Origin: an uncultured archaeon
Lineage (GTDB): Archaea > Asgardarchaeota > Lokiarchaeia > Sigyniarchaeales > SOKP01
DNA length: 64,000 nucleotides
Direction of reading: 5' to 3'
Assembly (NCBI GenBank): GCA_964525635.1
Contig: CAZGJX010000002.1
Span: 6,224 to 70,223, forward strand
A program made the position numbers and the translations under genes. Positions 926-58,716 of this stretch are shown here, piece after piece (the first letter of the stretch is position 1; every line of letters starts with the position of its first letter). Below the pieces are notes generated by a model that had not been told where the DNA came from, did no database searches, and worked only from the letters and a program-made list of their open reading frames with translations.

Positions 926-932
926 TTTTAAT

Positions 933-3133: not shown

Positions 3134-3138
3134 TTAAT

Positions 3139-4062
3139 ATGGAAGAAAAAAAAAAAATTATAGAAATATTTAACCTATCGAAGACCTATCATTTAAAAAA
3201 AAAAAATAAATTTATATCAGCTTTAGATGATGTCAATTTAAAAATTGCAGAAGGTGAAAAATTTGGGTTATTAGGACCAAATGGAGCAGGAAAAACAACA
3301 ATGGTTAAAATATTAACGACTCTAATTCAACCAACTAAAGGATATGCTATAATTGATGGATATAATATTCTAAAAAAACCCTCACAAGTTAGAAATAAAC
3401 TTGTATTGATGCTTGGAAATGAAATGATTTATTATAGACTTACTGGATATAGTAATCTAAAATTTTTTGCAAAGATATATCAAATATCGAATTATAAAGA
3501 AAAGATATATAATATTACTAAAGACTTTGGAATAGATAAATGGCTTCATGAATATGTAGAAAGATATTCGACAGGGATGAAAGTTAAATTATCATTATGT
3601 AGAACTCTCTTATTAAATCCTAAAATCTTTTTTCTAGATGAACCAACATTAGGTCTTGATGTTAGTACAATTAATTATATAATTGATAAATTAAAAAAAT
3701 TAAATAAAACAATTTTTTTGACAAGTCATAATATGAATGTTGTTGAAAAATTATGTGATAGAATTGCATTTATCAATAAAGGTAAAATCAATGTTATCGG
3801 TGATAAAGAGTATCTTAAAGAACTTCTAACTCAAAAGATTGAAATAACGATTGAAATTACTATAAATAAAAATAATTTAAAAAATGAATTAAATGAAAAA
3901 TCCTTTATTACAAATATAACTGAATATAAAAATGGATTAATTGTTGAGTTAAATAAAAGAATAAATTATCCTGATTTGTTAGCAATTTTAAAAGATTATC
4001 CTATTACAAAAATAAGAGAAACAGAATTGAATATTGAAGATTTATTTCTCAAAATTATATAA
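3139..4062 (+). CDS. ABC transporter ATP-binding protein (ABC-2 exporter ATPase)
   Basis: Walker A GPNGAGKTT, signature-like YSTGMKVKLSL, Walker B IFFLDEPTLGLD, H-loop LTSHNM. Confidence 0.9.
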   Translation: MEEKKKIIEIFNLSKTYHLKKKNKFISALDDVNLKIAEGEKFGLLGPNGAGKTTMVKILTTLIQPTKGYAIIDGYNILKKPSQVRNKLVLMLGNEMIYYRLTGYSNLKFFAKIYQISNYKEKIYNITKDFGIDKWLHEYVERYSTGMKVKLSLCRTLLLNPKIFFLDEPTLGLDVSTINYIIDKLKKLNKTIFLTSHNMNVVEKLCDRIAFINKGKINVIGDKEYLKELLTQKIEITIEITINKNNLKNELNEKSFITNITEYKNGLIVELNKRINYPDLLAILKDYPITKIRETELNIEDLFLKII

Positions 4063-4077
4063 TATAGAAAAAAAAAT

Positions 4078-5334
4078 ATGAATATACTACTTCTCACTTT
4101 TAGTTTTTACCCAGAAAAAGGAGGAATCTCTCACACAATCAACTCAATGTGTAAATTCTTTAATGAAAAAGATCATACCTTCATAGTTTTAAACCCAAAT
4201 TACAATGGAAAAAATATTCATAATCTTCTGATTAGAGATCAAACTCTAAAGAAAGAGATAAAAAAAATCTTTCATAAAAAATTTCTTCTTTCCTTATATA
4301 TTATCATAAAAAATTTGTTTCGAAAAAACAATATTCCTTTATTAGAAAGATTAAATTTAATTTTATATTTATTTCTAAAACCAAAAATATTAATTAGAAC
4401 AGTAGAGAATTTTCAAAAATTCTATCCATTTCTTCAAAAAACAAATTTCAATTTGATTGTTACTGCTGATTGTGGATTCCCACTTGTGTTGGGATTAATC
4501 ATATCAAAAACATTTAACAAAAAAATAGTGTCTTTAGCTCATGGTATTGATTTTCAAATAGAAAATTATTTTTCATTAAAATATTTTTATTTAAAAAACA
4601 CTGATTTTTTTATACTTAGCAATATTTGGTTAAAAAAACTTTTTCAAAAAATATATGATATAAATGACAAGAAAATTGATATAATAAACCGTGGTATGTT
4701 TTTGGAGGATTATTTCATAGAGAAATCCAAAGAAACACTTCGAATTGAAAATAATATTCCTATTGATAAATTTCTCTTGTTAAGTGTTGGTCGACAAAAT
4801 AAAAGAAAAAATTATCAATTAGTTATTAGAGCAATAAGAAAAATTAAAGATATAAGACTAAACTTTAATGGATTATATTATTTAATTGGTGAAGGGGATT
4901 ACACTTCAAATTTGAAGCATTTAGTTATAGAATTAGATCTCTCAGAAGATATAAAATTCTTAGGGATACTTGAAAATAAAAAAAGAAATGAATTCTATAA
5001 AATGTCAGATATATTTTTAATGCCTTCATTAACAGAAAAAAATGACGTTGAGGGATTTGGTATAGTTTTTCTTGAAGCAAATTACTATAAGGTTCCCGTA
5101 ATTGGTTCTACATCTGGAGGTATTGTAGAAGCTATTAAAGATGGAGAGAATGGGATTTTAGTAAATCCACGTAATTTAGATGATATAGTAAATAAAATAT
5201 TATATCTATATGATAATAAAGATCAGAGGATAAAAATGGGGGAGATAGGACATCAAAGAGTTATTAAGGACTATGATTGGACTAATATTGGGAAAAAATA
5301 TGAAAAAACATTTAAAAAAGCAATTAATTTTTAA
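4078..5334 (+). CDS. glycosyltransferase family 4 (GT-B, Glycos_transf_1)
   Basis: E-x7-E region EGFGIVFLEANYYKVPVIGSTSGGIVEAIKDGENGILV; 418 aa. Confidence 0.85.
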   Translation: MNILLLTFSFYPEKGGISHTINSMCKFFNEKDHTFIVLNPNYNGKNIHNLLIRDQTLKKEIKKIFHKKFLLSLYIIIKNLFRKNNIPLLERLNLILYLFLKPKILIRTVENFQKFYPFLQKTNFNLIVTADCGFPLVLGLIISKTFNKKIVSLAHGIDFQIENYFSLKYFYLKNTDFFILSNIWLKKLFQKIYDINDKKIDIINRGMFLEDYFIEKSKETLRIENNIPIDKFLLLSVGRQNKRKNYQLVIRAIRKIKDIRLNFNGLYYLIGEGDYTSNLKHLVIELDLSEDIKFLGILENKKRNEFYKMSDIFLMPSLTEKNDVEGFGIVFLEANYYKVPVIGSTSGGIVEAIKDGENGILVNPRNLDDIVNKILYLYDNKDQRIKMGEIGHQRVIKDYDWTNIGKKYEKTFKKAINF

Positions 5335-42311: not shown

Positions 42312-42671
42312 ATGTCTGAAGATCAATTTCAACATTTATTGCATAATATTTTTGATAATATAGAAGGAGTCAGGTCCGCAGCAATAGTCTCACAAGAAGG
42401 TCTTGTTGTCCATTCCATTTTAGAAGAAGGTATTTCTGAAATAAAATTAGCCGCAATGACTGCTACAATTCTTTCTGTTGCTGAAAAAGTTCTTCATGAA
42501 CTTAAATCAGGAATTCTTGATGTTTGTATTGTACAAGGAGATGATGGGAATTTTTGTGTCATGGAAGCAGGACCAGAATTAATAATTGCTGTATGTTTAA
42601 ATATAGATGCTCGTATGGATACTTGCTTCATAGAAATGAGAAAAGTCTCAGAACAAATTAAAAATATATAA
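42312..42671 (+). CDS. Roadblock/LC7 (MglB-like) domain protein
   Basis: 119 aa. IEGVRSAAIVSQEGLVVHS...LAAMTATILSVAEKV...GDDGNFCVMEAGPELIIAVC is the classic Roadblock pattern. Confidence 0.85.
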   Translation: MSEDQFQHLLHNIFDNIEGVRSAAIVSQEGLVVHSILEEGISEIKLAAMTATILSVAEKVLHELKSGILDVCIVQGDDGNFCVMEAGPELIIAVCLNIDARMDTCFIEMRKVSEQIKNI

Positions 42672-42842: not shown

Positions 42843-44078
42843 TTGGCAAAAACAATGGAAGTTAGTAATAATGGAAGTATTGAAATGGGTGAACCATATT
42901 ATTGTAAAGAGTGTGGTAGAACTCATCAGAAAGGAAAGATTTATCAAGATCATTTTAAATATGCTCAAAATCAAGAAAATATAGAAGAAAATAATGAAAT
43001 CGAAGATTATAATGAAGATATAGAGTCCGAAGATATTGATGATATTGATGATATCGATTATGATCAGGATGAAATCCTTGATGATGATATTGATGAGGAA
43101 TATGTTGAAAATGAAATAGATGAAAGGACTTTAGATGATTGTATAGATGAAGTCAAAGGACTTCCTGGAGTAGGGGATGCAACTTTAAAAAAATTAATTA
43201 AAGCAGGTTTTACAAGCCTTGAATCTATTGCATACACACCCCCTTCAATAATTCAAGAAGATAGTGGTTTAGGAGAAAAAACTACTGCTACTCTCATTAA
43301 AGCTTCTATGAAAAAATTAAACATAGGATTTAAATCAGCTCAAGATTTATGGGAACATAGAAAAAATATTACGAGAATTTCTACAGGGAGTCAGGAATTA
43401 GATAATATTTTTGCAGGAGGAATCGAAACTGGATGTGTTATTGAATTCTTTGGAGAATTTAGAACAGGAAAAACCCAAATTATGCATCAATTATGCGTAA
43501 ATGTTCAATTACCTCTAGAAAAAGGAGGTCTTGAAGGAAGAGCACTCTATATAGACACAGAAGGTACCTTTAGACCCGAAAGAATTATCCAAATGGCTGA
43601 AGCACTTGATTTAGACTATGATACAGTTTTGAAAAATATAATTTTTGGCAGAGCTTATAATTCAGATCATCAAATCCTTCTTGCTAAAGAAGCAGCAAAT
43701 ATTATAAAAGAAAAAAATATTAAGTTAATAGTTGTTGATTCTTTAATTGGTCATTTTCGAAGTGAATATATTGGAAGAGGAACACTCGCCACTCGTCAGC
43801 AAACAATAAACCAACATTTACATGATTTACTAAGATTATGTGATATTTATCCCCAATTAGCTGTTGTTGTAACAAATCAAGTTCAAGCAAAACCAGATGT
43901 ATTTTATGGTAATCCCATACAAGCTGCTGGTGGTAATGTTATTGCTCATGGTTCAACTATAAGAGTTTATTTAAGAAAAGGTAAAGGAGAGCAGAGAGTA
44001 GCAAAAATGATTGATGCTCCTCATTTACCGGAAGGAGAAGCTGTTTTCAGTATAACTGAAAATGGTATTTCAGATTAA
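42843..44078 (+). CDS. radA: DNA repair and recombination protein RadA with about 95-aa zinc-finger + acidic N-terminal extension
   Basis: Hh[26 protein letters not shown], Walker [10 protein letters not shown], Walker B LIVVDSL. N-terminal [19 protein letters not shown] followed by a D/E-rich tract. TTG 42843 is preceded by GTGAT + 5 nt; the alternative start is ATG 42855. Confidence 0.92.
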
Positions 44079-44205
44079 TAAATATCTTATTTTTAATTAT
44101 TATTTTTAAAATTCTAAATTAGTTAAAATATAGAATTTTTAATACAATTACTAGATGTTTTAGAATGGATATATAAAATTAAAAAAAATTAAAAATAAAA
44201 ATTAG

Positions 44206-47200
44206 TTATAAATTTTCAAATTTTTTAGATAAACCAATTAGTCTCTTAACTTCATCCTGCATTGAGTTGACACCTAATTTGAAGGCTTCAGATGCTTTAT
44301 TAGCAGCTTGTTTGAATTTTTCAGCAGCCATTTTATAATTCTTTTTCTTAAGTTCTTTCTGAGCCTGAGTTTCAAATTCTTTCTTACTTAGCATTGTATC
44401 ATCAATCTGGGTAAGACGTATAGCTTCTTGTAGTTCTCCAAGAGGTCTTTTTAAACCCCAATCATTAGCGATTATAGCAGCTTCCTCATAATATATAATT
44501 GCTTTTTTGTATGATAATACTTTTTTCTCTTTCCTTGCTTTAATAACGAGGATTTTAACCTGTTTTGAAGCCTCTTTGTTGGTTGTAACAACCTTCCCTG
44601 CAATTTTAGATTTTATTGGAGCCGATACAATCTCTTGCTTTTCTTGTAAACTTGCGAAATAAACTTCACGTTCTTGAGCACTCATTTGTGCCAATTGATC
44701 AATCATTGCCTGTGTTTCTTCACGAGGCAAAGTAACAAACTCACAGATCCTCTGTTCAATAAGCTGTTTTTCTTGTGGAGAAATAGCTTTACTTTCTAAA
44801 GCAGTAACGTCCCAAGGTATCAGTATTTTCTTTTCTCTTAGCTCTTTTATACCCATGAATATTTTTGAAATACCCTTCGTTGACTTTGTCATTGTCTTTT
44901 CAAGTAAGTTGGATATAAATATATAGTCTTTCCCTGTTTCTTTCGATATAGATTTAGCATTACCCAATATATCTTTTGAAGTAGTTATCCTTAAATCTTT
45001 GATAGCAGAGGAATCTAATTGAACTTGATGGGGAAGAATAATCGAGGTTTGGAAAATCTCATCTATCGAAGGGCCAGCATCTTTAAAAACATTCAACTGA
45101 CCTCTCCAGTTTGGTAAGGCAGCAGAATATCTTTGTTCAAAGAATTTAATGAATTCTCGAAGTTTACTTCTTAATAAAATAGATGCTTTTTTACTTAAGA
45201 CTAAAGAAACTCTGATATATTGACCATCAGCAAGTAGAAGCATCTTGTCTTCATAGCTTATTTCATTTAGTGCTTTTTGAGATTCTACTTCCTTTCCAAA
45301 TGATGAAACTGCTGATATAAATCCACTTATCAAATCGGGATCTATTTTTTCTGAACCATAAGATTTGAAGAATATGCAAGTACCGCTTCCCTTATATAAC
45401 ACTAAAATATGTTCTATATTTACAGCATCATCAAATACAGTCTTAACTTCGTCTAAAACACTATCTCTTCTTCTTTTCTGAGGAACTACTACTTTCTTAT
45501 AACCGACAATACCAATACTTGCCATTATTGCAGCCGCCAAGATTAATAATATATAAGGTATTAAATCTTCAAGATTTAATCCATCAGGTGGAGATTTTAC
45601 TCTTATATAAGGAACCTCATAACTTCCAGGTTCATGGTTATACGTCTCGGCGAAAGTAATTTGTATTGTCATATTTGCTGCTTGGTTGGGAATAATTATT
45701 TGAAACCAAACTACTCCATTACTATTGGTACTATTTTGAGGTATTGCTAAAGGTGTTGTTGTATTATCTTTATTTAGAAATAAGCCTGAAATACTTACTA
45801 GGGTACTTGTAAGAGGAAGCCATTGAGTACCATCATTATATTCACATAGTATTTTTAAATCAAATGAATTCCCTGCTGTCACTGAACTAGGAAATGATGT
45901 TGCATTGATTCTTACTTGATATTTTGCATAGATTGTGATATTAAAGGAAATCGAAAGTATATTATATGGCGCAAGACTAGCATTAATATCTATTCTGTAA
46001 AATCCAAGATCTAGTATAGAGGTTCCTATATTACCCGTATATTCATTTCCACTAGGATTTAATGATGAAGATAATGTATCTTCTTGTAATGATATCAAAT
46101 TAGTAGCATTAATAGTAAAAGTCACTGGTACCCCTTGAATAGCGATAAGATCGACATAATTATAACATGAAATATTTAAAGTTAATTGAAGATCACTCTC
46201 TTCAAAAAAAGTATAATTTCCAGAATCCCACAATCCTCCTTGAGTATTAACTGAAATAAAATTGATTTGGGTATCATCTCCTGCATAATAAAATTCAATA
46301 ACACTAGAGACACTCCAATTATAGTTTGGAGGATATGAGATATTTATATAGAAAGCATGCCAATCCAAGGTTAAACCAATAGTACTTATATTTAACTCGT
46401 AATCTCCATTTCCCAGTTCATAAAGCGACCAATTAAATATATCTCCGGTATACCATAAATCTTGGGTTGCATTATCAAATACTTGAATATTACTAGTTTT
46501 TAGACCTTCTATTCCTCTATCATTTAAAATATCATTGTAATAGAAAGTGACTGTTTGGTTCCATGTAGAACCTTCGGTAACTACATCATTAAATATTAAA
46601 TTTACAATTTGAGTTTGGGCGTGTATTACATTGATTGTAATGTTTATATATTGAGTTTCATTACCCTCAGAACTTATACTAAAATCGCATACATAGGGGG
46701 AACCTGAAACATCTACATCATTAGTATCTATTAAAATGGTATAATTTCCATTTCCATCATTTGACCAAGGATACACAGTAAATCCAGTGGGTATATCTTC
46801 AGATAGAATGCTAGCTGCTGTAATTGGATTACCATCTGTATCAGAATAATTGAAGGTATAGGTTGCATTTTGCCCTCTTATGATATCACCCAAGTTCGGA
46901 GTATTTGTTGGAGTTATTTGTGTAGTTATAATTTCATTAAACCAAAAGATAATAGTATCATTATTATAATTATCTTTCCATGCTTCAATTTCTATATAGT
47001 TATTTCCATAACTAAGAATTGTAGTATCAATTTCAATTTCATAAGTCCCATTATTATGATCCCACCAATTTAAAGGAGCTGGTGCATTTGATTCAATATT
47101 TCCGCCTAAAATAGGCTGATTTTGTCCAGTATCATTATAATATACAGATATATTAAAAATTTCTCCAAAAAAATATTCCAGACCTACCTGTGAATTAAGA

Positions 47201-48933
47201 ATTAAATTAGTTGTTGCGTTAATTGTTAAAACTCTTTCTTGAAATCCAATATCTGTTCCATTATTCCATAAAACTTGAGCTCGAAAATCACCATAATCTG
47301 TTGCATTTTCGCTGATATCCCAAGTAGTCATACTAAATGTTGTATCAGCACCTAAAATAGATACATCTTGTGTTTCATTATGATTCAAAATATTTCCTGC
47401 ATCATCAGGGCTATAAACTTCAAGTGTGATATTACCATTTGACATTGTTCTATCGAAGCTTACTTCAAAATCAACTGTCTCATTAAAATTAACTTCATAT
47501 GTCTCAATAGGCCCTAAAAAGATTTGAAAACTAGTCATAAGATTTTGAGATTGACTAGTTATGAACCAATTGGTACTATTCCCTGCATTAGTTATTTGAT
47601 ACTCTCTATACTCTCCTATCGCTGGACCTAATATTGTATCATCAGTAACATTAAGAATTGAATTAAAAGCTTGTTGATTACTCCAATGATGCGGTATTGT
47701 GAAATTAATCCAATAATTACCATAACCTGACTCTGAATCAAAACAATCAATATTTCCTAAGGTAATGATCCAATATACATTTGGATCTGTTTCACTACAA
47801 TTAAAATATGATGTTGCTTTTAGGTCTGAACGAGTATAATTTACTTGAATTTGGGTTACTTGACATGACACATCCCACCATTCAGCAGTTATTTCATAGG
47901 ATAATTGATTTGGTAAAATTGTATATTCTTGACTAAAAGTTACATTTCCTGATCCAGGACTAGAACCAAGTATTGGATTGTTATTAATTTCGAGCCCAAT
48001 TTGAGATGGTGTTGGTGTATTGCTCTCGGGAACCAAACCAACTCTCATTAGATAATCTATAGTATAAGAACTTCTAACAACTAAATCCCAATCTCCAGAA
48101 ATATATGTCAAACTAATTGTTTGATCTCCATCTCCAGTAATACCTCCATCTAATGTATTATACCATGCACAATCTCCTCCATAAGAGGCATCATCAAATA
48201 AACCTATAAACCATATCTTATCCATTGTCTTTGAGTTATCCAATTGAATATTTAATCCAGTAATTACATGCCATCCATCCCCAGTAGCATTTGATATATC
48301 TATAAGTTGTTGAAAATCATTGATACCCCCTCCAGGTTTATATGTTCCTAGTCCAGAATCATATGTAGCATTATATAAAACAACTCTAATTCTACCAGTC
48401 GCAAGTTGCTCTTCAATGAAAACAGATATATTATTGATATAACCATCCCCTTCTACCTCAAAAGAAGTTACTCTAGGAATTACTGTCGAAAAATCTCCAA
48501 CACTAAAATCTTGAGGATTATTCTCTTGTAGTATTAAATATTTATCAGGAGCATAAATATTATCAATATTTATCTGTGAAACTGTAGAATTAAAATTCTT
48601 TTCAAAAGGAGTATTTGTAGTAAATGTTCTTATTGCAGGATCAGATACATTTGTTATATCAAATAGAGGTGCACCAACTTCAATTTTTGATTGATGTAAG
48701 GTAGTATTTATATCTTGAGAATATCCATCATAATAACCAGAATATGCAGCTGATTTTAAAGTAAGGTCGTCCTCTATAGGTTCTATTTCATTATCATCAT
48801 CAACACTATTCATTCCACAAGGAAAGTTCAAAAAATTAGTAAATCCTACCGAAAACAAGAATGAAACAGTTAGAATCGCTAAAAGAATTATTCTATTTGT
48901 TTTTTTATTTTTAAATTGTAACATATTTATCAA
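44206..48933 (-). CDS. giant type-I surface protein: signal/anchor, about 1080-aa sequon-rich beta-rich ectodomain, one TM helix, 430-aa cytoplasmic tail with Roadblock/longin-like module and helical C-terminus
   Basis: 1575 aa. TM LIPYILLILAAAIMASIGIVGY (nt 45499-45564) is followed by KKVVVPQKRRR. The tail contains NIEHILVLYKGSGTCIFFKSYGSEKIDPDLISGFISAVSSFGKEV...MLLLADGQYIRVSLVL. My manual count gives about 42 N-x-S/T sequons before the TM and none after it. Confidence 0.8.
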   Translation of the reverse strand: MINMLQFKNKKTNRIILLAILTVSFLFSVGFTNFLNFPCGMNSVDDDNEIEPIEDDLTLKSAAYSGYYDGYSQDINTTLHQSKIEVGAPLFDITNVSDPAIRTFTTNTPFEKNFNSTVSQINIDNIYAPDKYLILQENNPQDFSVGDFSTVIPRVTSFEVEGDGYINNISVFIEEQLATGRIRVVLYNATYDSGLGTYKPGGGINDFQQLIDISNATGDGWHVITGLNIQLDNSKTMDKIWFIGLFDDASYGGDCAWYNTLDGGITGDGDQTISLTYISGDWDLVVRSSYTIDYLMRVGLVPESNTPTPSQIGLEINNNPILGSSPGSGNVTFSQEYTILPNQLSYEITAEWWDVSCQVTQIQVNYTRSDLKATSYFNCSETDPNVYWIITLGNIDCFDSESGYGNYWINFTIPHHWSNQQAFNSILNVTDDTILGPAIGEYREYQITNAGNSTNWFITSQSQNLMTSFQIFLGPIETYEVNFNETVDFEVSFDRTMSNGNITLEVYSPDDAGNILNHNETQDVSILGADTTFSMTTWDISENATDYGDFRAQVLWNNGTDIGFQERVLTINATTNLILNSQVGLEYFFGEIFNISVYYNDTGQNQPILGGNIESNAPAPLNWWDHNNGTYEIEIDTTILSYGNNYIEIEAWKDNYNNDTIIFWFNEIITTQITPTNTPNLGDIIRGQNATYTFNYSDTDGNPITAASILSEDIPTGFTVYPWSNDGNGNYTILIDTNDVDVSGSPYVCDFSISSEGNETQYINITINVIHAQTQIVNLIFNDVVTEGSTWNQTVTFYYNDILNDRGIEGLKTSNIQVFDNATQDLWYTGDIFNWSLYELGNGDYELNISTIGLTLDWHAFYINISYPPNYNWSVSSVIEFYYAGDDTQINFISVNTQGGLWDSGNYTFFEESDLQLTLNISCYNYVDLIAIQGVPVTFTINATNLISLQEDTLSSSLNPSGNEYTGNIGTSILDLGFYRIDINASLAPYNILSISFNITIYAKYQVRINATSFPSSVTAGNSFDLKILCEYNDGTQWLPLTSTLVSISGLFLNKDNTTTPLAIPQNSTNSNGVVWFQIIIPNQAANMTIQITFAETYNHEPGSYEVPYIRVKSPPDGLNLEDLIPYILLILAAAIMASIGIVGYKKVVVPQKRRRDSVLDEVKTVFDDAVNIEHILVLYKGSGTCIFFKSYGSEKIDPDLISGFISAVSSFGKEVESQKALNEISYEDKMLLLADGQYIRVSLVLSKKASILLRSKLREFIKFFEQRYSAALPNWRGQLNVFKDAGPSIDEIFQTSIILPHQVQLDSSAIKDLRITTSKDILGNAKSISKETGKDYIFISNLLEKTMTKSTKGISKIFMGIKELREKKILIPWDVTALESKAISPQEKQLIEQRICEFVTLPREETQAMIDQLAQMSAQEREVYFASLQEKQEIVSAPIKSKIAGKVVTTNKEASKQVKILVIKARKEKKVLSYKKAIIYYEEAAIIANDWGLKRPLGELQEAIRLTQIDDTMLSKKEFETQAQKELKKKNYKMAAEKFKQAANKASEAFKLGVNSMQDEVKRLIGLSKKFENL

Positions 48934-49185
48934 AATATGTATAATTTGCTTAATATATTATAACTAAAAAGTAGTTATTTTCTAAAATATATTTATTCTT
49001 TTTGTTATTTATTATTTGAGATTTTCTTAGACTTTTGTTCTAGGGATACACTTTAAAAATACGAAAAATTTAGTAATTATCTTAAAATGATCTTGAATTA
49101 TTTCAATTTTACCTAATTAATTATATAAATTTAATATATAAATTTAATTTGAAAATAGTAAGAATTATAAATTCTAACACATGTT

Positions 49186-49869
49186 TCAAGATTTTAATAT
49201 AATTCTAGCATCTACACATATAAGCTCTTTTTGATACACAAAAATAGGATTCAAATCAATTTCCTGAATGGATTTATATTGTAAAACGAATTCTGAAATT
49301 TTCATTAAAATATTAATAATTGCATCAATGTTTACTTTAGGTCTTCCTCGAAATCCTGTTAATAATGGAAATCCTTTAATCTCCGTTATCATCTCACGAC
49401 AATCATATTCGGTTACTGGAATAATTCGAAAACTAACATCATCTAAAAGTTCAACCAAAAGCCCTCCAATACCAAACATAAGGGCGGGTCCAAATTCAGG
49501 ATCAGTTGTCATACCAATGATAATTTCGGTAATCGGAGGCTCAGCCATCTTTTGTATGGATATTATCTTTTCTTTTTCAGAAGTTATATTCATAAGTTCA
49601 TTGAATGCATTTATTGCTTCTTCTTTATTCTTAATATTTAATTTAACAGCTCCCATTTCTGATTTATGGGCGATATCCTCAGTAATTAATTTCATAACAA
49701 TTGGATAACCTATTTCATTAGCAACAACAATGAGTTCTTCTTTGGTTGATACTAGTTTTTGATTAGGTATTGGGATACCTATTTCTTTTAATATCTCTTT
49801 AGAATCAAATTCATTGATAATTTCCTTTCCCGCTTGGATTTTATTCTTGAGAAACAAATTAATATCCAT
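49186..49869 (-). CDS. acdB: acetate--CoA ligase (ADP-forming) beta subunit (ATP-grasp)
   Basis: Collinear with P. furiosus ACS beta as I recall it: IGYPIVMKLITEDIAHKSEMGAVKLNIKN, GPALMFGIGGLLVELLDDVSFRI, EIDLNPIF. Confidence 0.85.
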   Translation of the reverse strand: MDINLFLKNKIQAGKEIINEFDSKEILKEIGIPIPNQKLVSTKEELIVVANEIGYPIVMKLITEDIAHKSEMGAVKLNIKNKEEAINAFNELMNITSEKEKIISIQKMAEPPITEIIIGMTTDPEFGPALMFGIGGLLVELLDDVSFRIIPVTEYDCREMITEIKGFPLLTGFRGRPKVNIDAIINILMKISEFVLQYKSIQEIDLNPIFVYQKELICVDARIILKS

Positions 49870-50010
49870 TTAAAATCATTTAATAATAAAGTAGAAGTGT
49901 TTACTAAACATTTCTGAATAGTTTATAGAATAATAACATGAATAAAAAATTAATCAAAACACTTTTAAAACCGAAATTAAATAACTCATATAAGAATTAA
50001 AATTTTCAAG

Positions 50011-51102
50011 ATGATTTTTATGGTAAGTGAAAAAGAGAAAAATATCACAATTTTAATGGAAAATTTGGTTAACTCTGGATATGATGTAGAATTTGTATTT
50101 CTCTATAATAGACAAGGGTTACTCATAGCTAAATATGAAAAAACTGAAACAGACGATAACCATAAAAATAAAGAAGATATGGAGGAAGTTTATGGAGCAA
50201 TATCTACTTTAGTAGATAATCTTTTTAATAAAATTTCAATGGAATATAAAAGTGATAATTTTGGAACAGGTTCTTTCGACACACCAGATCATCGTATAAT
50301 CTTTCTTGAAGCGGGTCCCGAAGCCGTTATGGTCTGTGTATGCAATTATCAAGCAGATCTAAATAGAGTATTTCCAATAGCATATTTAATTGTTGAAAAA
50401 ATTGCTCAATTGATTGAAGGAAGTTTTGATTTTAAAGTTAATTCCTTAGAGATTCCCCAATTAAGTATTCATAGAGACTTTGATTTATATTTAGATAAGC
50501 ATAAAACTGAAAATACTAAACCTTTACTTGATAATATATATTTAAAACACCGAATTGAAAGGGAAAAAAAAACAGATATTAATTTTAAATTAATTATATT
50601 AGGTTCAGCTTCGGTTGGGAAAACTACTTTAGTAAATAGTTTTTTAAAAAAAGAGCAGCTGTTGGATTATCGTCCAACAATAGGAATGAGTATTTCAATG
50701 CAAAAATATTATATACAAGGTTTTAAAGATGATATAATTACATTTTTAATATATGATTATGCTGGACAAGAGTTTTTCAAACGCGTTAGACATGAATATT
50801 ATAATGGAGCGAATTGTGTTTTTGTGGTGTATGATATTACCAGAAGAGAAACCTTTGATGAAAGTATCGATTTTTGGTTTAAGGATGCTAAGGAACAATT
50901 AGGTGATATACCCTTTGTAATTATTGGAAATAAGATGGATTTGTTGGATCAGCGTCAAATATCAATAGAAGAAGGAAAAAAAAAGGCAGAAGAATTAAGG
51001 AGTTTTTTTATAGAGACTTCAGCATTATATAATAAAAATGTAGTAGATACCTTCAAATTGATAGGAATAGGTCATTTCTTTAGAATTATTGATATTCTTT
51101 AA
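50011..51102 (+). CDS. Roadblock/LC7 domain fused to a Rab/Ras-like small GTPase
   Basis: aa 12-137 are Roadblock (VEFVFLYNRQGLLIAKY...IIFLEAGPEAVMVCVC). aa 191-355 are the GTPase: G1 GSASVGKT, switch I YRPTIG, G3 DYAGQE, G4 GNKMD, G5 ETSAL. There is no C-terminal Cys. Confidence 0.88.
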   Translation: MIFMVSEKEKNITILMENLVNSGYDVEFVFLYNRQGLLIAKYEKTETDDNHKNKEDMEEVYGAISTLVDNLFNKISMEYKSDNFGTGSFDTPDHRIIFLEAGPEAVMVCVCNYQADLNRVFPIAYLIVEKIAQLIEGSFDFKVNSLEIPQLSIHRDFDLYLDKHKTENTKPLLDNIYLKHRIEREKKTDINFKLIILGSASVGKTTLVNSFLKKEQLLDYRPTIGMSISMQKYYIQGFKDDIITFLIYDYAGQEFFKRVRHEYYNGANCVFVVYDITRRETFDESIDFWFKDAKEQLGDIPFVIIGNKMDLLDQRQISIEEGKKKAEELRSFFIETSALYNKNVVDTFKLIGIGHFFRIIDIL

Positions 51103-51124
51103 AATAAAATAGAATAAAACCAAA

Positions 51125-52144
51125 TCAAATTTGAAAAAATACTATTTTTATTGTTGCATAAAATGCATAAAAACTTATTAAAAGGATAGATTCCCGTGTT
51201 TTAAGAGACTTCTTCGTCCATAGAAAGTAATATGCGATTGATATTCCTATAAAAAGCATTGGTATGTCATAAAATAATAAAATCTTTACGACCTCGAATT
51301 CAGCAATAATAGCACCTGCACCTGTTGCGAAAAGAATATCACAAATGTTGGAACCTAAAATATCCCCTATAGCAATACCATATGAACCTCTTCGCATTGC
51401 AGTTAAATCAACGACAAGTTCAGGTACACTTGTTCCCAAACCAACAATTAAAATACCAATAACATTTTCAGGTACATTTAATTCTTCAGCTAAATTGTGT
51501 CCTGAAAGTATAGATATTTCAGCACCAACTAATAAGAATAATAAACCAATTAGAAAATATAATATATCTTTCCTAATTGAAGGTATTCTTAAGGAACCTT
51601 TCTTAACCTCTAGCTGGAGTGGATCTAATCCCTCTCTCTCAACTTCCTCTATTTTTGGTTCTGCTTTTCTTAATTTTTTCTCACTTATAATTATTAAAAT
51701 TAAATATATGATATATATAATAATCATTGTTAAAGCTTCGATACGAGCTATTAATCCATCAATTGCGAATAGCAAAAAAATAAAAAGAGATAAGAATAAC
51801 ATAGGTCCTTCTCTTCGTAATTCCCATTTGCTAATAAATATTGTCTGTGTTAATCCTAAGAGTCCTAATATAAACGTAATCTGAGTAAAAAATGAACCAA
51901 TTTTATTTCCAATAACTATTCCATCTACAGAGGGATCAATTCCTAAGAGTTTATCAAATCCCCCCATAATTGAGACTGTTATTTCTGGTAAGCTAGTTCC
52001 AATAGCTAAAATCGTCAAACCTACCATTAGGTAACTTATACCAAACCGTTTCGCGATACCTTCTAATCCAATTATGATATATTTAGCCCCAAAATATAAT
52101 GCAACAAATCCTGAAAGCATAAATAAAATTGGATATAACATCAT
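51125..52144 (-). CDS. Ca2+/Na+ antiporter (CaCA family, YrbG/NCX_Mj-like)
   Basis: Alpha-repeat motifs GTSLPEITVS and GLGTSVPELVVD in a 10-TM-type protein. Confidence 0.85.
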   Translation of the reverse strand: MMLYPILFMLSGFVALYFGAKYIIIGLEGIAKRFGISYLMVGLTILAIGTSLPEITVSIMGGFDKLLGIDPSVDGIVIGNKIGSFFTQITFILGLLGLTQTIFISKWELRREGPMLFLSLFIFLLFAIDGLIARIEALTMIIIYIIYLILIIISEKKLRKAEPKIEEVEREGLDPLQLEVKKGSLRIPSIRKDILYFLIGLLFLLVGAEISILSGHNLAEELNVPENVIGILIVGLGTSVPELVVDLTAMRRGSYGIAIGDILGSNICDILFATGAGAIIAEFEVVKILLFYDIPMLFIGISIAYYFLWTKKSLKTRESILLISFYAFYATIKIVFFQI

Positions 52145-52589
52145 TTATTTTAAAACACCTTGAAAATAGTTTTTATAAATCGATTTTTATTAATTTTTAT
52201 ATAAAATCTAAGTATCTCTATATTAGAACCAACACTAAATTAATTACAACTGAATTTCAAATAATTGAGTAATCTTCAAAGAAATTACAAATTAGAAATG
52301 TATACTATTTTATTCTAATAAGACTTCTTCTATCATAAAACAATATTATCGAAATTAGGATATCGTATAAACTGTCCTAGATTATAAATATCAATGAAAT
52401 TTTTCTAACTATTTTATTGTACTTTTAACTCTTGAATGGAATTGAACAAATATATTAAAAACACTTATATATATAAGTCTATCTATGATAAAGAAAAATA
52501 AAGAGGAGTATATTGCAAATTAATTGATATTTTTAAAAAACCTATTATTAAATAATTAAAAAAAAAGAAATAAAAAAGAGAGTTAAGAT

Positions 52590-55484
52590 TTACCCTTTTC
52601 TATGGAATGTACTTAAACTATTTTGAAATTTCTCGCTTTTATGCATTTTTCGCCGAGCAAGGAACTTTCTTATTTCTTCAGCAGGTAGTATCCATATTGA
52701 AGAACCGAAAAATACAGGTGTCCAGTAAAACCATCTATCAAGAGGAAGGGCATGAAAAGCCGTATTTAAACCAGGTATGAATAATACCATCAAATGTAGT
52801 GAAAATGAAAGCCCAGTTGCCCAAAATAAATGTTTATTTCGAAACTCCCAGAATGGTCGATAACTCGATGTGCAAGCAAAGACAAAGAATAATTCAAAAA
52901 ATACTACACTAGTAAAAACAATTGTTTGAACTATACCAATTTGAAAATCCTCAGCACTTATACCCATACTTGGTATACCATAGACCATACGCGAATCATA
53001 GAAAGTTGAAGTTGGATCTGTCCACATTGGAACTAAGACGGACCAAGAGACCGTATATAACATAACATCAAGGATAGCTGCAATAGCGGCTGCATATATA
53101 ATCATTTTCTTTATATCATGAATCATATTGAAGCCTTTCCGCGGTTTGAACTTCATAACATCTGGATCAGTGGGAGTTAGGCCTAAAACCATCGCGGGAA
53201 TGCCGTCGGTAGCTATATTCAACCAAAGGATTTGAATAGGTTGAAGTGGTTGGGCTAGGAATATATTAGTAGCAACCTTCATTAAAATAAATGCTACTAA
53301 TACCATTACAATCTCATCGAAATTAGCACTGAGCATATATCTAAAAAAACATTTTGTTGTTTCGAAGATTCCTCTCCCTTCTTCAATAGCGTTAACAATA
53401 GTAGAATAATCATCGTCTAATAGAATCATATCAGAAGCTTCTTGTGTTACTTCTGTCCCCTTAATCCCCATAGCGACACCTACATTTGCACCCTTTACTG
53501 CAGGAGCATCATTTACACCATCCCCTGTCATAGATACAATATATTCAAGAGATTTCAATGCCTTGAGGATTCTAAGTTTATGTTCTGATGTGACTCTAGC
53601 AAAAACATCAACCTCTTCTACTCTTTTTATAAGCTCGTCTTCAGGCATTTCTTCCATTTCAGCACCAGTAACAGCATCTTCTCTGTCTGTTAAGCCAATT
53701 TCTTTTGCTATAGCGATAGCAGTAATCATATGATCTCCAGTAATCATTATTGTTCGAATACCTGCCATTCTTGCTTCTTCAATAGAATCTTTTACTTCAT
53801 CCCGGGCAGGATCAATTATCCCTGCTAATCCAAGGTATATATAATCTTTTTCAATATCTTCCTTCTGATAATTTTCATTTAAAGGTTTATATGCTAATCC
53901 TAAAACTCTCAATGCATTAGAAGCATATTCATTATTTTTTGATAAATAAGTATCTTCAACCTCTGAAAATGGTTTAATTTCACCATTATATAACCCTTTC
54001 CCTGCATTATGCATTAAAACATCTGGAGCTCCTTTAATTAAAGAATAAAATTCTCCATTCATTCTAATAACAACAGCCATCATTTTACGATCTGAACTAA
54101 AGGGAATTTCATCAATTTTTTCTGCTTTTACGTTAAGATGCATTTTTTTTGCTAAGACTTTTAAAGATATTTCTGTTGGATCACCGATTACATCCGTTTC
54201 TATAGGATTGTTATCTTTAGGACTAACAATTGAATTATTACATAATAAACATATTTCTAGATATTTTCTTAAATAAACATCATCATCTAGTTTAACAGGA
54301 TTACCTGAACTATTGATTATTTTTCCATTCAATGTATATCCCACTCCTTCAACATCAAATTCTTTTCCCCCAAGATATACCTTCTTAACTGTCATTTCAT
54401 TTTTTGTTAAAGTTCCCGTTTTATCAGAGCAAATAATATTAACCCTTCCCAACGTCTCTACAGCTGTTAGCGTTTTCACTAAAGCATGTCTTTCTGCCAT
54501 TTTACGCATACCAATACTCATAACTACAGTTATTACAACCACAAGACCTTCTGGTACAGCAGATACTGCAAGACTTATTGCTATAGCTAAAGCTTCAACA
54601 ATATTATTAATCTCTTCATCTCCAAATTTTATACCTTCAGTGGCTATAATTATAATTAATTCAAAAAGGAAGACAAATAAACAAATAATCATTATGATTA
54701 TACCAAGTTGTTTTCCAAAACGATCTACTTCTTGTTGGAAAGGACTTTTTTCTGGTTCTTCTTCTTGAATTTTTTCAGCAATTTTTCCTACTTCTGTTTT
54801 CATTCCAGTTCTTACAACTATAGCTTCACCATTTCCACGAGTGATAATTGTATTACTATATACCATATTTTTCCTATCAGCCAACATTGTCTTCTCTTTA
54901 TATAAATTTAAATCTTTCTCAACTGGTTGAGATTCTCCAGTAAGAATGGCTTCATCAATATATAAAGAATATGCTTTATTTAAACGAGCATCAGCAGGTA
55001 TTTTATCTCCCTCATCAAGTTTTATTATATCTCCTGGAACTACTTCTCTGACATCAATTTCTCTTACTTTTCCCCCACGCTTAACCTTTGCATTGTGCGG
55101 TGCCATTTTCTTTAGACTTTCTACCGCTTTTTCTGCTTTAAATTCTTGATAAAATCCTAAAATAGCATTTAATATTAGAATAATCAATATTACTAAAGCA
55201 TCCATGAATTCAGTAGGATCTCTTCCTCTAGATAATTCATAAATACCTACTACAACTGAAACACCAATTGCAAAAAATAGAAGATATACAAGAAAATCCT
55301 TGAATTGTCCAATAAAAATTTGTAATGCAGAAACCTTCCTTGTTTGGATTAATTCATTAAAACCATATTTTTCAATGCGTACTCCTACTTCTTCTTCTGA
55401 AAGTCCTGTATCAAGGCTTGTATCTATTTCTTTCGCTACATCATTTACTTCTAATACGTGAGCACTTAATTCTTTAGATTCCAT
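52590..55484 (-). CDS. P-type ATPase, P2 (Ca2+-transporting, SERCA/PMCA-like)
   Basis: TGES, M4 VPEGL, ICSDKTGTLT, MITGDH, TGDGVNDAPA; 964 aa. Confidence 0.92.
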   Translation of the reverse strand: MESKELSAHVLEVNDVAKEIDTSLDTGLSEEEVGVRIEKYGFNELIQTRKVSALQIFIGQFKDFLVYLLFFAIGVSVVVGIYELSRGRDPTEFMDALVILIILILNAILGFYQEFKAEKAVESLKKMAPHNAKVKRGGKVREIDVREVVPGDIIKLDEGDKIPADARLNKAYSLYIDEAILTGESQPVEKDLNLYKEKTMLADRKNMVYSNTIITRGNGEAIVVRTGMKTEVGKIAEKIQEEEPEKSPFQQEVDRFGKQLGIIIMIICLFVFLFELIIIIATEGIKFGDEEINNIVEALAIAISLAVSAVPEGLVVVITVVMSIGMRKMAERHALVKTLTAVETLGRVNIICSDKTGTLTKNEMTVKKVYLGGKEFDVEGVGYTLNGKIINSSGNPVKLDDDVYLRKYLEICLLCNNSIVSPKDNNPIETDVIGDPTEISLKVLAKKMHLNVKAEKIDEIPFSSDRKMMAVVIRMNGEFYSLIKGAPDVLMHNAGKGLYNGEIKPFSEVEDTYLSKNNEYASNALRVLGLAYKPLNENYQKEDIEKDYIYLGLAGIIDPARDEVKDSIEEARMAGIRTIMITGDHMITAIAIAKEIGLTDREDAVTGAEMEEMPEDELIKRVEEVDVFARVTSEHKLRILKALKSLEYIVSMTGDGVNDAPAVKGANVGVAMGIKGTEVTQEASDMILLDDDYSTIVNAIEEGRGIFETTKCFFRYMLSANFDEIVMVLVAFILMKVATNIFLAQPLQPIQILWLNIATDGIPAMVLGLTPTDPDVMKFKPRKGFNMIHDIKKMIIYAAAIAAILDVMLYTVSWSVLVPMWTDPTSTFYDSRMVYGIPSMGISAEDFQIGIVQTIVFTSVVFFELFFVFACTSSYRPFWEFRNKHLFWATGLSFSLHLMVLFIPGLNTAFHALPLDRWFYWTPVFFGSSIWILPAEEIRKFLARRKMHKSEKFQNSLSTFHRKG

Positions 55485-55646
55485 TTTTAATTCATTATTT
55501 AGATTTTATAATAAATTCTTTTTATTTTTTTAAATAAAAAATTTAAAATTAATTAGATAAATACAATAAATTTTATTTAAATATCTATTATAAGTTAAAA
55601 AAATGTTCTAATAAAGAATAGGTTCTAAAAATAATAATTTAAGACA

Positions 55647-57566
55647 TTAAAATTGTTTATTTTTTATATAGGGTAATTTTCCACCAGCTTTTAAAATATT
55701 AATTTGTCTTTGACTTAAATTATGAGCTAAAGGAATGAAAATATTTTTACTCGTATTTTTAAGGTTAAGATTTTTAAAAGTAAAATCATCTAATTCAATT
55801 TCGACGTAATCCTCTTGGTCGATTTGGTTATAGTCTTTTGGATCTTTAAAAATAAGAGGAACAATCCCAAAGTTTACTAGGTTATCTAAGTGAATTCGAG
55901 CAAAAGATTTGCTGATTATCGCTTTAACTCCCAAATATTTTGGGGCTATTGCAGCATGTTCTCTACTTGAACCTTCTCCATAATTATCTCCTCCTATAAT
56001 AAATCCTCCTCCCTTTTCTAATGCTCTTTCTGAGAAATTAGAATCAATTAAATGGAATACATATTTACTTATTGCTGGAATATTACTTCTTAAAGGAAGG
56101 ATCTCTGCTCCTGCAGGTATAATATGATCAGTTGTGATATTATCACCTACTTTAAGTAGAATATGACCATTTAATATATTATTAAGTGGTAAAAATGAGG
56201 GTAAAGGTTTAATATTTGGACCTCGTATGATCTCTATATCATTATTGGCCTCTGACGGAGGAATTATCATATTATCATTAATAATAAACTTTTCTGGCAT
56301 TTTGATTTCAAAATTTTCTTCAAATTTTCGTGGATCAGTTAATTTACCATAAATAGCAGATACTGCTGCTGTTTCTGGGCTAACAAGGTATACTTCTGCA
56401 TTTTTAGTACCAGATCGTCCTAAAAAATTCCTATTAAAAGTACGAAGAGAGATAGCATTTGTAGATGGTGCTTGTCCCATTCCAATACATGGTCCACATG
56501 CATTTTCAAGAATTCTTGCACCTGCTTTTATTAAAAACGACATTTCTTTTGTTTCTATTAAATGATCAATAACTTGCCTTGATCCTGGAGAAATTGTTAA
56601 ACTCACATTATTATCTATTTTTTTTCCTCTTAAAATATTAGCTACTATCTTAAGGTCTCTCAGGCTTGAGTTTGTACAACTTCCTATACATATTTGATCA
56701 ATAGAAAGACCTTTAATTTCCTTTACTTTTTTAATATTACCCGGACTATGAGGAATTGCAGCTAGAGGTTCTAGATTATTTAGATTTATCTCTATTTTTT
56801 CGTCATATATAGCATCTGAATCGGGTTCTAATTTTTTCCAATCATCCCCTCTTCTTTGAGCAATTAAAAATTGTTTTGTAATATTATCTGAAGGAAAGAT
56901 TGAACTGGTTGCTCCTGTCTCTGTTCCCATATTTGTAATCGTCCCTCTCTCGGGAACTGACAAACTCTTAATGCCTGGACCTGTATATTCCAATATTTTA
57001 TTATTAGCCCCCTTAACTCCAATTTGCCTTAAAACATCTAGTATGATGTCCTTTGCGGAAACAAATTTTGGAAGTGCTCCAATAAGATGTATATTCACAA
57101 TCTCGGGCATTTTTAAAAAAAAAGGTTCCCCCGCCATTGCACTAGCAACATCTAATCCCCCTGCTCCAATTGCTAACATTCCCATACCCCCTCCAGTTGG
57201 TGTATGACTATCACTACCCAGCAGTGTTTTCATAGGCGCTGCAAAACGTTCTAAATGTAACTGATGGCTTATTCCATTTCCCGGACGGGAAAAATATAAA
57301 CCATATTTTGCTGCAATACTTTGGAGATAGCAATGATCATCCATATTTCTAAAATCTGTTTGAAGAGTATTATGATCAACATAACTTATAGATAACTCCG
57401 TTTTGACTGAGGGTACTTCCATAGCTTCAAACTCTAAATATGCCAAAGTACCTGTAGCATCTTGAGTAAGTGTTTGGTCTATTTTAATTCCAATGTTTGA
57501 TCCTTTTATTAAATCTCCTTCTATAAGATGATCCTTCAATACTTTTTCTGATATAGTATAAACCAT
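55647..57566 (-). CDS. aconitate hydratase (about 640-aa fused large + swivel domain type)
   Basis: IDQTLTQDATG, GSDSHT, IGSCTNSS, CGPCIGMGQAP (Fe-S ligands), GGDNYGEGSSREHAA. Confidence 0.88.
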   Translation of the reverse strand: MVYTISEKVLKDHLIEGDLIKGSNIGIKIDQTLTQDATGTLAYLEFEAMEVPSVKTELSISYVDHNTLQTDFRNMDDHCYLQSIAAKYGLYFSRPGNGISHQLHLERFAAPMKTLLGSDSHTPTGGGMGMLAIGAGGLDVASAMAGEPFFLKMPEIVNIHLIGALPKFVSAKDIILDVLRQIGVKGANNKILEYTGPGIKSLSVPERGTITNMGTETGATSSIFPSDNITKQFLIAQRRGDDWKKLEPDSDAIYDEKIEINLNNLEPLAAIPHSPGNIKKVKEIKGLSIDQICIGSCTNSSLRDLKIVANILRGKKIDNNVSLTISPGSRQVIDHLIETKEMSFLIKAGARILENACGPCIGMGQAPSTNAISLRTFNRNFLGRSGTKNAEVYLVSPETAAVSAIYGKLTDPRKFEENFEIKMPEKFIINDNMIIPPSEANNDIEIIRGPNIKPLPSFLPLNNILNGHILLKVGDNITTDHIIPAGAEILPLRSNIPAISKYVFHLIDSNFSERALEKGGGFIIGGDNYGEGSSREHAAIAPKYLGVKAIISKSFARIHLDNLVNFGIVPLIFKDPKDYNQIDQEDYVEIELDDFTFKNLNLKNTSKNIFIPLAHNLSQRQINILKAGGKLPYIKNKQF

Positions 57567-57663
57567 AGTTTGATGAATTCCTTTAATTATTTAAATAATA
57601 AGTTTTCCTAATTAGAAAAAGTATCAAAAATATAAAAAATTATAAGTAAAAATAGTCTTTTAT

Positions 57664-58209
57664 TTGTTAATTGTAATTTATCTAATCTTTTTTAAAAAAA
57701 AACAAATAGTATTGAAGAATATGAGACCAGCACGAGTGTTTAGATGGATAGTAAGAATTTTTATACTTATCCTTACCGCCTCTATGTCGCTTGTATCTAT
57801 TTTAGGAGGAATGTCTGCTGTAAATATCTTGGGAGATTCTAATAATATACAAGTACCCTATGGTTCTGTTTCTTTTTATCATACTGGCCCTCTTGCGGGA
57901 TGGAATTTAACTGTTCCATTTCTTATTAATAATACTGGTTATTTTGATCTGACTAGCTTTGAAATTGGAATCAGTATAGAAATGAGTTATAATTTGTCTC
58001 TAAACGAGATAATATTTAATGGTAATCAAAATTTTGATGATATTCCAAACGGAGAAATTCTAGTAGATTTTTTTTTTATAACAGGTTTTACTAAATCTTA
58101 TCCTCTAACAGGCCCTCCTTCATTTAATTGTGATATAACAGCATCAGGTTCTTATTCACTAAATCTTATTTCATTTGAAATTCATATACTAAATTATAAT
58201 TTAATTTAA
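57664..58209 (+). CDS. hypothetical membrane-anchored protein with beta-rich ectodomain
   Basis: The likely start is ATG 57721 (MRPARVFRWIVRIFILILTA...). One TM helix, then a beta-strand-like sequence. Confidence 0.45.
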   Translation: MLIVIYLIFFKKKQIVLKNMRPARVFRWIVRIFILILTASMSLVSILGGMSAVNILGDSNNIQVPYGSVSFYHTGPLAGWNLTVPFLINNTGYFDLTSFEIGISIEMSYNLSLNEIIFNGNQNFDDIPNGEILVDFFFITGFTKSYPLTGPPSFNCDITASGSYSLNLISFEIHILNYNLI

Positions 58210-58224
58210 AGAGGTATTTTCAAA

Positions 58225-58716
58225 ATGGGCGCTCCTAAAAACATGATTAAAGGCTTTATATTTATGGGAATTTATATTACAATTACAATTGTTATACCAT
58301 ATCTTACATTTACTTATATTAAAGGTTTAGAAATAGAAGGGATACCTATAATTCTTTCTCAGGAAGATTATGATACAATAATTTATTGGGTAACAGCTTT
58401 CGGTTTAGTAATTAGTGGTTGTGCGTTTTTCACTTTTTCATCTCCAAAACAATCCATCAGGAAAGGTTCTTTTGCATTAATACAAGTTATTTTAAATTGT
58501 TTATATCTCTGGAGTTATAAATTTTCAGGCGCAACTGATATACAAATAGATATTTCAGGGGGTGGTATTAATGGTTATGTGATCTTGGGAATACAACAAT
58601 TTATATTAGTCTTTATGGGTATTTACTTTTTAACAATAACTATCAAAATATATGATCTTGTTGATTTCACTGTAAATAGAGAGAAAATAAGAAAGAAGAG
58701 GTGGGGAATAGTATGA
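58225..58716 (+). CDS. hypothetical 4-TM membrane protein
   Basis: Hydrophobic segments only; same-strand neighbour of the two flanking ORFs. Confidence 0.45.
   Translation: MGAPKNMIKGFIFMGIYITITIVIPYLTFTYIKGLEIEGIPIILSQEDYDTIIYWVTAFGLVISGCAFFTFSSPKQSIRKGSFALIQVILNCLYLWSYKFSGATDIQIDISGGGINGYVILGIQQFILVFMGIYFLTITIKIYDLVDFTVNREKIRKKRWGIV

Follow-up and report, generated by a model that had tools for sequence, protein, structure and literature searches.

A single gene in a 64,000-nucleotide stretch of DNA from an uncultured archaeon (Asgardarchaeota, Lokiarchaeia, Sigyniarchaeales; assembly GCA_964525635.1, contig CAZGJX010000002.1, positions 6,224 to 70,223; the whole stretch is called the window, and nucleotide positions are counted within it) encodes an N-terminal roadblock domain and a C-terminal Rab-like G domain on one polypeptide (Roadblock-GTPase, RG). 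Judged by comparison of protein sequences and gene order, RG belongs to the core genome of Lokiarchaeia, where it is syntenic, present in single copy and passed on vertically, and its roadblock domain belongs to a subtype that, with very few exceptions, is joined to a G domain and that carries an EK / IP signature. Both of these results are new here. The architecture itself is not new: it was already catalogued in 2016 and 2024 and is biochemically uncharacterised, and the present gene is a further member. Beyond the exclusivity of the fusion and the syntenic core status, what is added is proof, from structure models, of a roadblock fold where Pfam fails.

The gene lies in one open reading frame (ORF) on the + strand (50011 to 51102, 363 codons) that contains no internal stop. 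The opposite strand of this interval holds no overlapping ORF of at least 60 amino acids (aa). With a window G+C content of 22-31%, stop codons are frequent, and an ORF of such length is therefore not expected by chance. An earlier reading made from the DNA letters alone (the sequence-only reading) had started the gene at 50011, where an in-frame ATG would add MIF to the N-terminus. The true start is probably the second ATG, at 50020, because a public protein that is 100% identical (P0001, 360 aa) is called from there and because the relatives also begin there, their starts aligning with the Met at 50020 (MVSEK...). Residue numbers are accordingly counted from 50020, and those of the sequence-only reading are 3 higher; the Pfam coordinates given below (aa 193-350) refer to the 363-aa translation. 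A ATATAAGA stretch (window 49988 to 50020) is found about 25-30 bp upstream of this ATG. Its position is that expected of an archaeal TATA box if the transcript is leaderless and begins at ATG 50020, but in such A+T-rich DNA it may be due to chance. A protein search returned 274 homologues, of which 120 were listed, and counts over listed relatives refer to these 120. The layout of the gene is as follows.

50020 to 51102, + strand: RG gene, 360 aa plus stop; most likely extent
50029 to 50418, + strand: predicted roadblock domain, residues 4-133, from AlphaFold2 (AF2), Foldseek, profile matches and hhalign
Elements of the roadblock domain, by residue: α1 4-17, β1 23-30, β2 33-39, α2 48-75, β3 83-87, β4 91-97, β5 103-109, α3 114-133
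50419 to 50466, + strand: conserved C-terminal extension of the roadblock domain, residues 134-149 (GSFDFKVNSLEIPQLS); column identity 0.71
50467 to 50574, + strand: variable linker, residues 150-185; column identity 0.38; run of nine A (A9) at 50564-50572
50575 to 51099, + strand: Rab-like G domain, residues 186-360, from Pfam Ras, TIGR00231, Rab6 and Foldseek
50602 to 50625, + strand: G1 / P-loop GSASVGKT, residues 195-202; G200, K201 and T202 invariant in 62 relatives
50668 to 50685, + strand: switch I / G2 YRPTIG, residues 217-222; Y217, R218, T220 and G222 invariant in the family, T220 being the conserved Thr
50755 to 50772, + strand: switch II / G3 DYAGQE, residues 246-251; A248, G249 and Q250 invariant, Q250 being at the position of the catalytic Gln
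50926 to 50940, + strand: G4 GNKMD, residues 303-307; N304, K305 and D307 invariant
51013 to 51027, + strand: G5 ETSAL, residues 332-336; E332, S334 and A335 invariant

Structure modelling together with family comparison shows that residues 4-133 form a predicted roadblock fold, for which the sequence signal alone is weak. AF2 predicts an α-β-β-α-β-β-β-α order of elements for these residues both in the whole protein, modelled from an alignment of 62 sequences (mean predicted local distance difference test score, pLDDT, of 74.8; predicted template modelling score, pTM, of 0.78) and in a model of the N-domain alone (pLDDT of 77.9). In a Foldseek search of the PDB with the N-domain model, MglB is the top match (E 2.4e-7, template modelling score, TM, of 0.65-0.75). 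It is followed by Roadblock3 of Prometheoarchaeum syntrophicum strain MK-D1, a Thorarchaeota roadblock protein, MglC, Streptomyces roadblock proteins, LAMTOR subunits and the C-terminal domains of RagA/C, with the Rag C-terminal domains 6s6d, 6s6a and 6ehr among the matches. The roadblock matches as a whole range from E 2e-7 to 1e-4 and from TM 0.6 to 0.77. The family profile and the structure model were both needed for this assignment, because searches with the query by itself were uninformative: it gives no match to Pfam Robl_LC7 (PF03259) even at E<=1, and phmmer with its N-terminal part finds nothing meaningful among PDB sequences. Of 20 relatives, 15 match Robl_LC7 on their own sequence (best E 4e-5), the score of the best being estimated at ~23 bits against a gathering score of 23 bits, that is, at the cut-off. 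A profile built from the same 20 relatives places the roadblock structures 3leq and MK-D1 Roadblock3 (9jue) at the top, weakly (E 0.03-0.05) and with alignments that span the whole domain.

A comparison within the window points the same way. A stand-alone roadblock/LC7 protein of 119 aa (42312 to 42671, + strand; Robl_LC7 E 4.5e-12) is encoded 7.7 kb upstream of RG, just before RadA. hhalign aligns the RG N-domain profile with this protein at a probability of 93.6% (E 2e-7), and tblastn with the stand-alone protein hits the RG genes of six relatives in their N-terminal portion. The "complete Roadblock domain" of the sequence-only reading thus holds as a fold, supported by AF2, Foldseek, the relatives and hhalign, but not as a Pfam match in the query itself. 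In the 62-relative alignment, the invariant positions of the domain include G82, G84, S85, F86 and T88, at the β3 edge and its approach, and G59-A60 in α2. In roadblock proteins, the β3 edge strand and the α2 region make dimer and GTPase contacts. As a sign of a dimer edge, the invariance of G82, G84, S85, F86 and T88 is only suggestive.

From profile and motif comparisons, the C-terminal domain is Rab-like, and not Rag-like or MglA-like. Pfam Ras (PF00071) covers aa 193-350 along profile positions 1-155 of 162 (E 7.9e-41, 139.8 bits); Roc (88.8 bits) and Arf (51.2 bits) score lower, and the query has no match to Gtr1_RagA (PF04670) at E<=1. The NCBIfam model small_GTP (TIGR00231) scores 73 bits against a cut-off of 42.5. 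The best 60 PDB sequence matches are all Rab or Ypt proteins, and they include the Thorarchaeota Rab 7ezb. Rab6 is the top match (E 1.6e-28), aligning gaplessly through both switches with no switch II insertion, and Foldseek with the full model returns Rab43 and Rab6 (TM about 0.8 on target). Identities to the best-matching G domains (Rab6, Rab14, Rab11, Ypt51 and 7ezb) are 35-38%. By the usual definitions of the Rab family (RabF) motifs, YYNGA and VVYDIT fit RabF4 and RabF5, corresponding to the YYxGA and VYDIT of Rabs, and IGMSI, YDYAGQE and FFKRVR fit RabF1-3 in part. The IGVDF and WDTAGQE of Rabs are only partly kept in RG (IGMSI and YDYAGQE). Eukaryotic Rabs also differ from RG in having a C-terminal hypervariable tail with a prenylatable Cys and in lacking the N-terminal roadblock domain.

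The motifs quoted in the sequence-only reading (GSASVGKT, YRPTIG, DYAGQE, GNKMD, ETSAL and the terminal ...FFRIIDIL) are all present in the translation, together with the N-terminal roadblock and C-terminal Ras-superfamily folds that it had placed in one uninterrupted ORF. Its concern that the G domain might lack nucleotide-binding competence was not borne out, the Ras profile being aligned end to end. Since the G1-G5 motif residues are invariant in 62 relatives, the G domain looks able to bind and hydrolyse GTP. The Tyr of DYAGQE, which had been singled out as a departure from the usual motif, is of little note, because the second residue varies freely: among the 120 listed relatives, 111 have DLAGQ, 4 DYAGQ, 3 DFAGQ and 1 DVAGQ. 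A similar correction applies to the reported absence of a lipidation site. The C-terminus does lack a Cys, but this is not special to the gene: just 1 of the 120 listed relatives has a Cys within the last 12 residues, and the passage on Lokiarchaeum GTPases in Dey, Thattai and Baum (2016; PMC4917890) already describes these proteins as without CAAX boxes and prenyltransferases as absent.

The sequence-only reading had further called the protein an inverted Rag. The layout is indeed reversed: in Rag/Gtr proteins (RagA-D, Gtr1/2) the G domain comes first and the roadblock domain last. The two kinds of protein are also alike in holding a G and a roadblock domain in one polypeptide and in having no lipid anchor. 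Kinship with the Rags, however, is not seen, given the Ras score, the missing Gtr1_RagA match and the Rab/Ypt proteins among the best matches. Rags are localised via roadblock-roadblock contacts with Ragulator.

Between the two domains lie 52 residues, in agreement with the ~50-aa linker described previously. They consist of a conserved 16-residue extension of α3 followed by a variable tether, whose end is mildly basic (mean net charge of +2.8 over residues 170-189 in 62 relatives). The family consensus of the extension is SFDFKxNxLEIPDL. Its Ile-Pro persists in the wider RG superfamily: of 47 divergent representatives, at least 90% conserve P146. A related "VSPVIP" motif follows α3 in P0158, a relative without a G domain. 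Because P0158 has the motif without a G domain, the "IP" extension most likely belongs to the roadblock module and not to a roadblock-G interface.

The 120 listed homologues are, with hardly an exception, full length. They come from NCBI, JGI, ENA and Logan assemblies, share 56-81% identity over 96-100% of the query and are mostly 353-390 aa long; two shorter entries (324 and 326 aa) have 82-88% coverage. Pairwise column identity in the 62 relatives reaches 0.64 in the roadblock domain and 0.76 in the G domain; between them, residues 134-149 score 0.71 and residues 150-185 score 0.38. As read from this alignment, strong purifying selection is shown for the two domains and for the start of the linker (residues 134-149). 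The roadblock domain is no decaying appendage. In a scan of one genome per species, 47 loci encoding a relative were found, of which 45 are relatives of the RG gene; nearly all of the 45 are titled Promethearchaeota or Promethearchaeia, and 3 are cut by a contig end. The scan used exact peptide patterns and therefore missed MK-D1. Three further loci (L008, L022 and L026) hold a typical Lokiarchaeial RG gene by identity and synteny, yet come from metagenome-assembled genomes titled Hodarchaeota or Odinarchaeota, titles that may reflect a binning or naming inconsistency.

Against 1.84 billion representative proteins, a profile of this roadblock subtype matches only 85 clusters, and in 47 of these a near-full-length G domain directly follows the roadblock domain. 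Among the clusters of at least 300 aa, P0158 alone is without a G domain, and the short matches look like fragments. Members that are named by source are Promethearchaeota or Helarchaeota. Across the 47 divergent RG representatives, the kept positions are E126-K127 (α3), Pro146, DY.PTIG, D.AGQ, NK.D and ETSA. Since the subtype is so rarely found without a G domain, the two domains evolve together as a unit.

Fusions of this kind have been noted before. Klinger et al. (2016), as relayed in a passage of Dey, Thattai and Baum (2016; PMC4917890), reported that Lokiarchaeum has Ras-like GTPases with a fused roadblock domain. Tran et al. (2024; PMC10933270) modelled 74 GTPases of MK-D1 with AF2; in 26, a roadblock or longin domain accompanies the GTPase. 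They named the GR and RG architectures, of which GR has a switch II insert and RG has none. Four MK-D1 proteins are labelled RG there and are aligned beside Ypt1 and Rab1B; they appear as AF2 catalogue entries, with no biochemistry, dimer model or distribution analysis (PMC10933270). The present protein resembles this MK-D1 class in its N-terminal roadblock domain, C-terminal G domain and absence of a switch II insertion. One MK-D1 protein, WP_147664993.1, has ...YKPTLGLSI... and ...QGFEDK..., close to the YRPTIGMSI and QGFKDD seen here, around switch I and in the interswitch region; orthology was judged from a machine-read supplement alignment with many misread letters, and on this basis a counterpart of the RG orthogroup is probable in MK-D1, a cultured strain.

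The RG gene is monocistronic. It is divergent from an ATP-grasp_5 gene (a domain of the ADP-forming acyl-CoA synthetase type) and convergent with two genes, one for a Na/Ca exchanger and the other for a P-type cation ATPase. The order RadA, giant protein of 1550-2250 aa, ATP-grasp, RG, P-type ATPase and two small genes recurs; it is kept down to about 54% RG identity and lost at about 50%. This collinear block spans 42843 to 58716 of the window and is found at loci L003-L041 and L050, that is, in dozens of Promethearchaeota genomes. In some genomes, either a Na/Ca exchanger gene (51125 to 52144 in the window) or a gene of the metallo-beta-lactamase fold stands between RG and the ATPase, and the two small genes that end the block (57664 to 58209 and 58225 to 58716) are unannotated. 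Because the block consists of housekeeping genes, it is read as ordinary core-genome collinearity that points to no partner. RG diverges about as slowly as its neighbours, with identities of 58-65% vs 60-66% for the ATPase and the ATP-grasp enzyme. Asgard signature proteins have been described as patchy and lineage-specific, and against this background the core status of RG stands out.

The giant protein of the block (44206 to 48933, - strand, 1575 aa) has no Pfam match. It starts with a signal or anchor; then come an outer part in which N-x-S/T is frequent, a single transmembrane helix and, on the cytoplasmic side, a tail of ~500 residues. Conservation is about 50% in the tail (74% mean column identity in 10 relatives) vs 30-40% in the outer part. 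The end of the tail looks TPR-like, and the segment after the membrane helix (IEHILVLYKGSGTCIFFKSYG...) suggests by eye a β-β-α-β-β-β-α domain. Neither a profile search against the PDB nor hhalign with the profile of the RG roadblock domain detected roadblock or longin similarity in the tail. As a roadblock or longin docking partner, the tail is therefore without a sequence signal and stays speculative.

By analogy with known roadblock proteins, the proposal, with about an even chance of being right, is that RG is a GTP switch that binds partners and is localised through the pairing of its roadblock domain with another such domain or with a longin domain. The protein would cycle between GTP and GDP, and the second member of the pair would lie either in another copy of RG or in a separate protein. 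Such pairing would yield a dimer with two heads, as in the Rags, or a GTPase held permanently on a roadblock platform, and would stand in for the prenyl tail of eukaryotic Rabs in binding partners and in localisation. The proposal was made because roadblock domains pair in MglB dimers, in LAMTOR and in the Rag C-terminal domains, and because of the dimer models of Tran et al., which were built for GR and longin-G proteins only and show typical roadblock/longin dimers (PMC10933270). The same study describes roadblock and longin dimers as conserved platforms for small GTPases (PMC10933270). With a C-terminal Cys missing in 119 of the 120 listed relatives, membrane or partner targeting would have to come from elsewhere. 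In addition, the whole-protein model, in which both domains are folded and the pTM is 0.78, suggests that they have a definite arrangement relative to each other.

Several observations weigh against pairing. In the compared loci, RG has no conserved roadblock, longin or GTPase neighbour. The stand-alone roadblock gene of the window was considered as such a neighbour and rejected, since relative L053 lacks it at the corresponding position. Finally, the Asgard proteins that Tran et al. expressed in HeLa cells, among which RG was not included, gave a diffuse cytoplasmic signal only (PMC10933270).

The main rival account, possible although doubtful, is the fusion of a regulator and its GTPase in cis that the sequence-only reading had suggested, by which RG regulates itself: the roadblock domain would dock on switch I/II of its own or a partner's G domain and act, in the manner of MglB, as a GTPase-activating protein (GAP) or an aid to nucleotide exchange, so that the fusion would be a covalent version of a non-dissociating MglA-MglB complex. 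The MglA/MglB pairs of Thermus thermophilus and Myxococcus xanthus are similar to RG in that a roadblock protein is matched with a Ras-superfamily GTPase, and MglB proteins are what the N-domain most resembles in structure. The pTM value, which suggests packed domains indirectly, and the near absence of this roadblock subtype without a G domain also favour the account. A further parallel is the conserved extension after α3: in M. xanthus, the MglA-MglB complex is held by a C-terminal extension of MglB, which keeps MglA-GDP bound, with dual GAP/GEF-like behaviour (GEF, guanine nucleotide exchange factor; PMC13408092). The RG extension, however, is also present in P0158 and so does not require contact with a G domain. 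Identity of the N-domain to MglB is 13-16%.

The G domain is a second difficulty for self-regulation. MglA proteins, as Tran et al. also describe them, are marked by an Arg of their own next to the switch I Thr, a TVPGQ-like G3 and an extended switch I. The RG domain has instead DxAGQ and gapless switches of Rab6 length, and is Rab-like. An Arg is found in switch I two residues before the Thr (R218), and it is invariant in the family but variable in the wider RG superfamily; as a general built-in arginine finger, R218 was rejected for this reason. The stoichiometry differs as well, given that MglA and MglB are separate proteins with two MglB per MglA, which a 1:1 fusion in one polypeptide cannot copy directly. 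Pairing and regulation in cis are not mutually exclusive. A version that unites them, in which RG would be a self-contained two-headed switch with a roadblock dimer, a GAP or exchange aid acting in cis or across the dimer, and recruitment to the membrane by a protein contact such as the tail of the giant protein, is unlikely. If true, it would make RG an independent, Rab-based counterpart of the eukaryotic Rag-Ragulator system and a tractable model for small-GTPase targeting before prenylation. It is quite unlikely that RG is instead a GTPase-controlled adaptor, whose nucleotide state would expose or hide a roadblock surface for a target such as the cytoplasmic tail of the giant protein. This idea draws on the conservation of the giant protein, ATP-grasp and RG block down to about 54% identity, on a tail conserved far above the outer part, and on the lack of an anchor in RG itself. 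Nevertheless, the block also holds RadA, aconitase and the P-type ATPase and looks like core-genome collinearity, it is lost at about 50% identity, the genes are not co-oriented, and the tail is without sequence similarity to roadblock or longin domains.

An artefact of sequencing, assembly or gene calling that joined two genes has a negligible probability; the sequence-only reading had named a sequencing or assembly error as a way for the fusion to be false. The A9 homopolymer runs, one in the linker (50564-50572) and one in the G domain (50976-50984), are error-prone, and the roadblock and G parts are in different frames in one relative, L054. However, one frame is kept in the 120 listed relatives from independent projects and in loci of 47 species genomes, the first 16 linker residues are conserved, and a systematic error shared at 56-81% amino-acid identity is implausible. 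L054 itself (ENA contig_129874, 50 to 4742) looks like a product of assembly indels, with the RG, P-type ATPase and ATP-grasp genes all split across frames. As the sole case of a candidate natural split into roadblock and G genes, it was set aside as an assembly problem, its neighbours being broken too. Contigs of this kind can mimic separate roadblock and GTPase genes.

Asgard archaea have dozens of small GTPases without lipid anchors, GDP dissociation inhibitors (GDIs) or the classical eukaryotic GAPs and GEFs. How these GTPases are targeted and regulated bears on the origin of eukaryotic membrane traffic, and roadblock-GTPase fusions offer clues to the pairing of regulator and GTPase. At 360 aa, single-copy, syntenic and conserved at a housekeeping level across Lokiarchaeia, the RG orthogroup is a good experimental entry.

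Some members of the wider superfamily carry additional sequence. In P0158 (307 aa), a long low-complexity stretch comes after the roadblock subtype, and the C-terminal part looks ubiquitin-like by eye (...FHLSSGGITLDESFPLKDYNINDGDEILLIPSS). Large extra C-terminal regions are present in some RG proteins, namely P0143/P0210 (678-679 aa), P0156 (894 aa) and P0122 (585 aa), and one RG cluster member bears the NCBI name "DUF4268 domain-containing protein".

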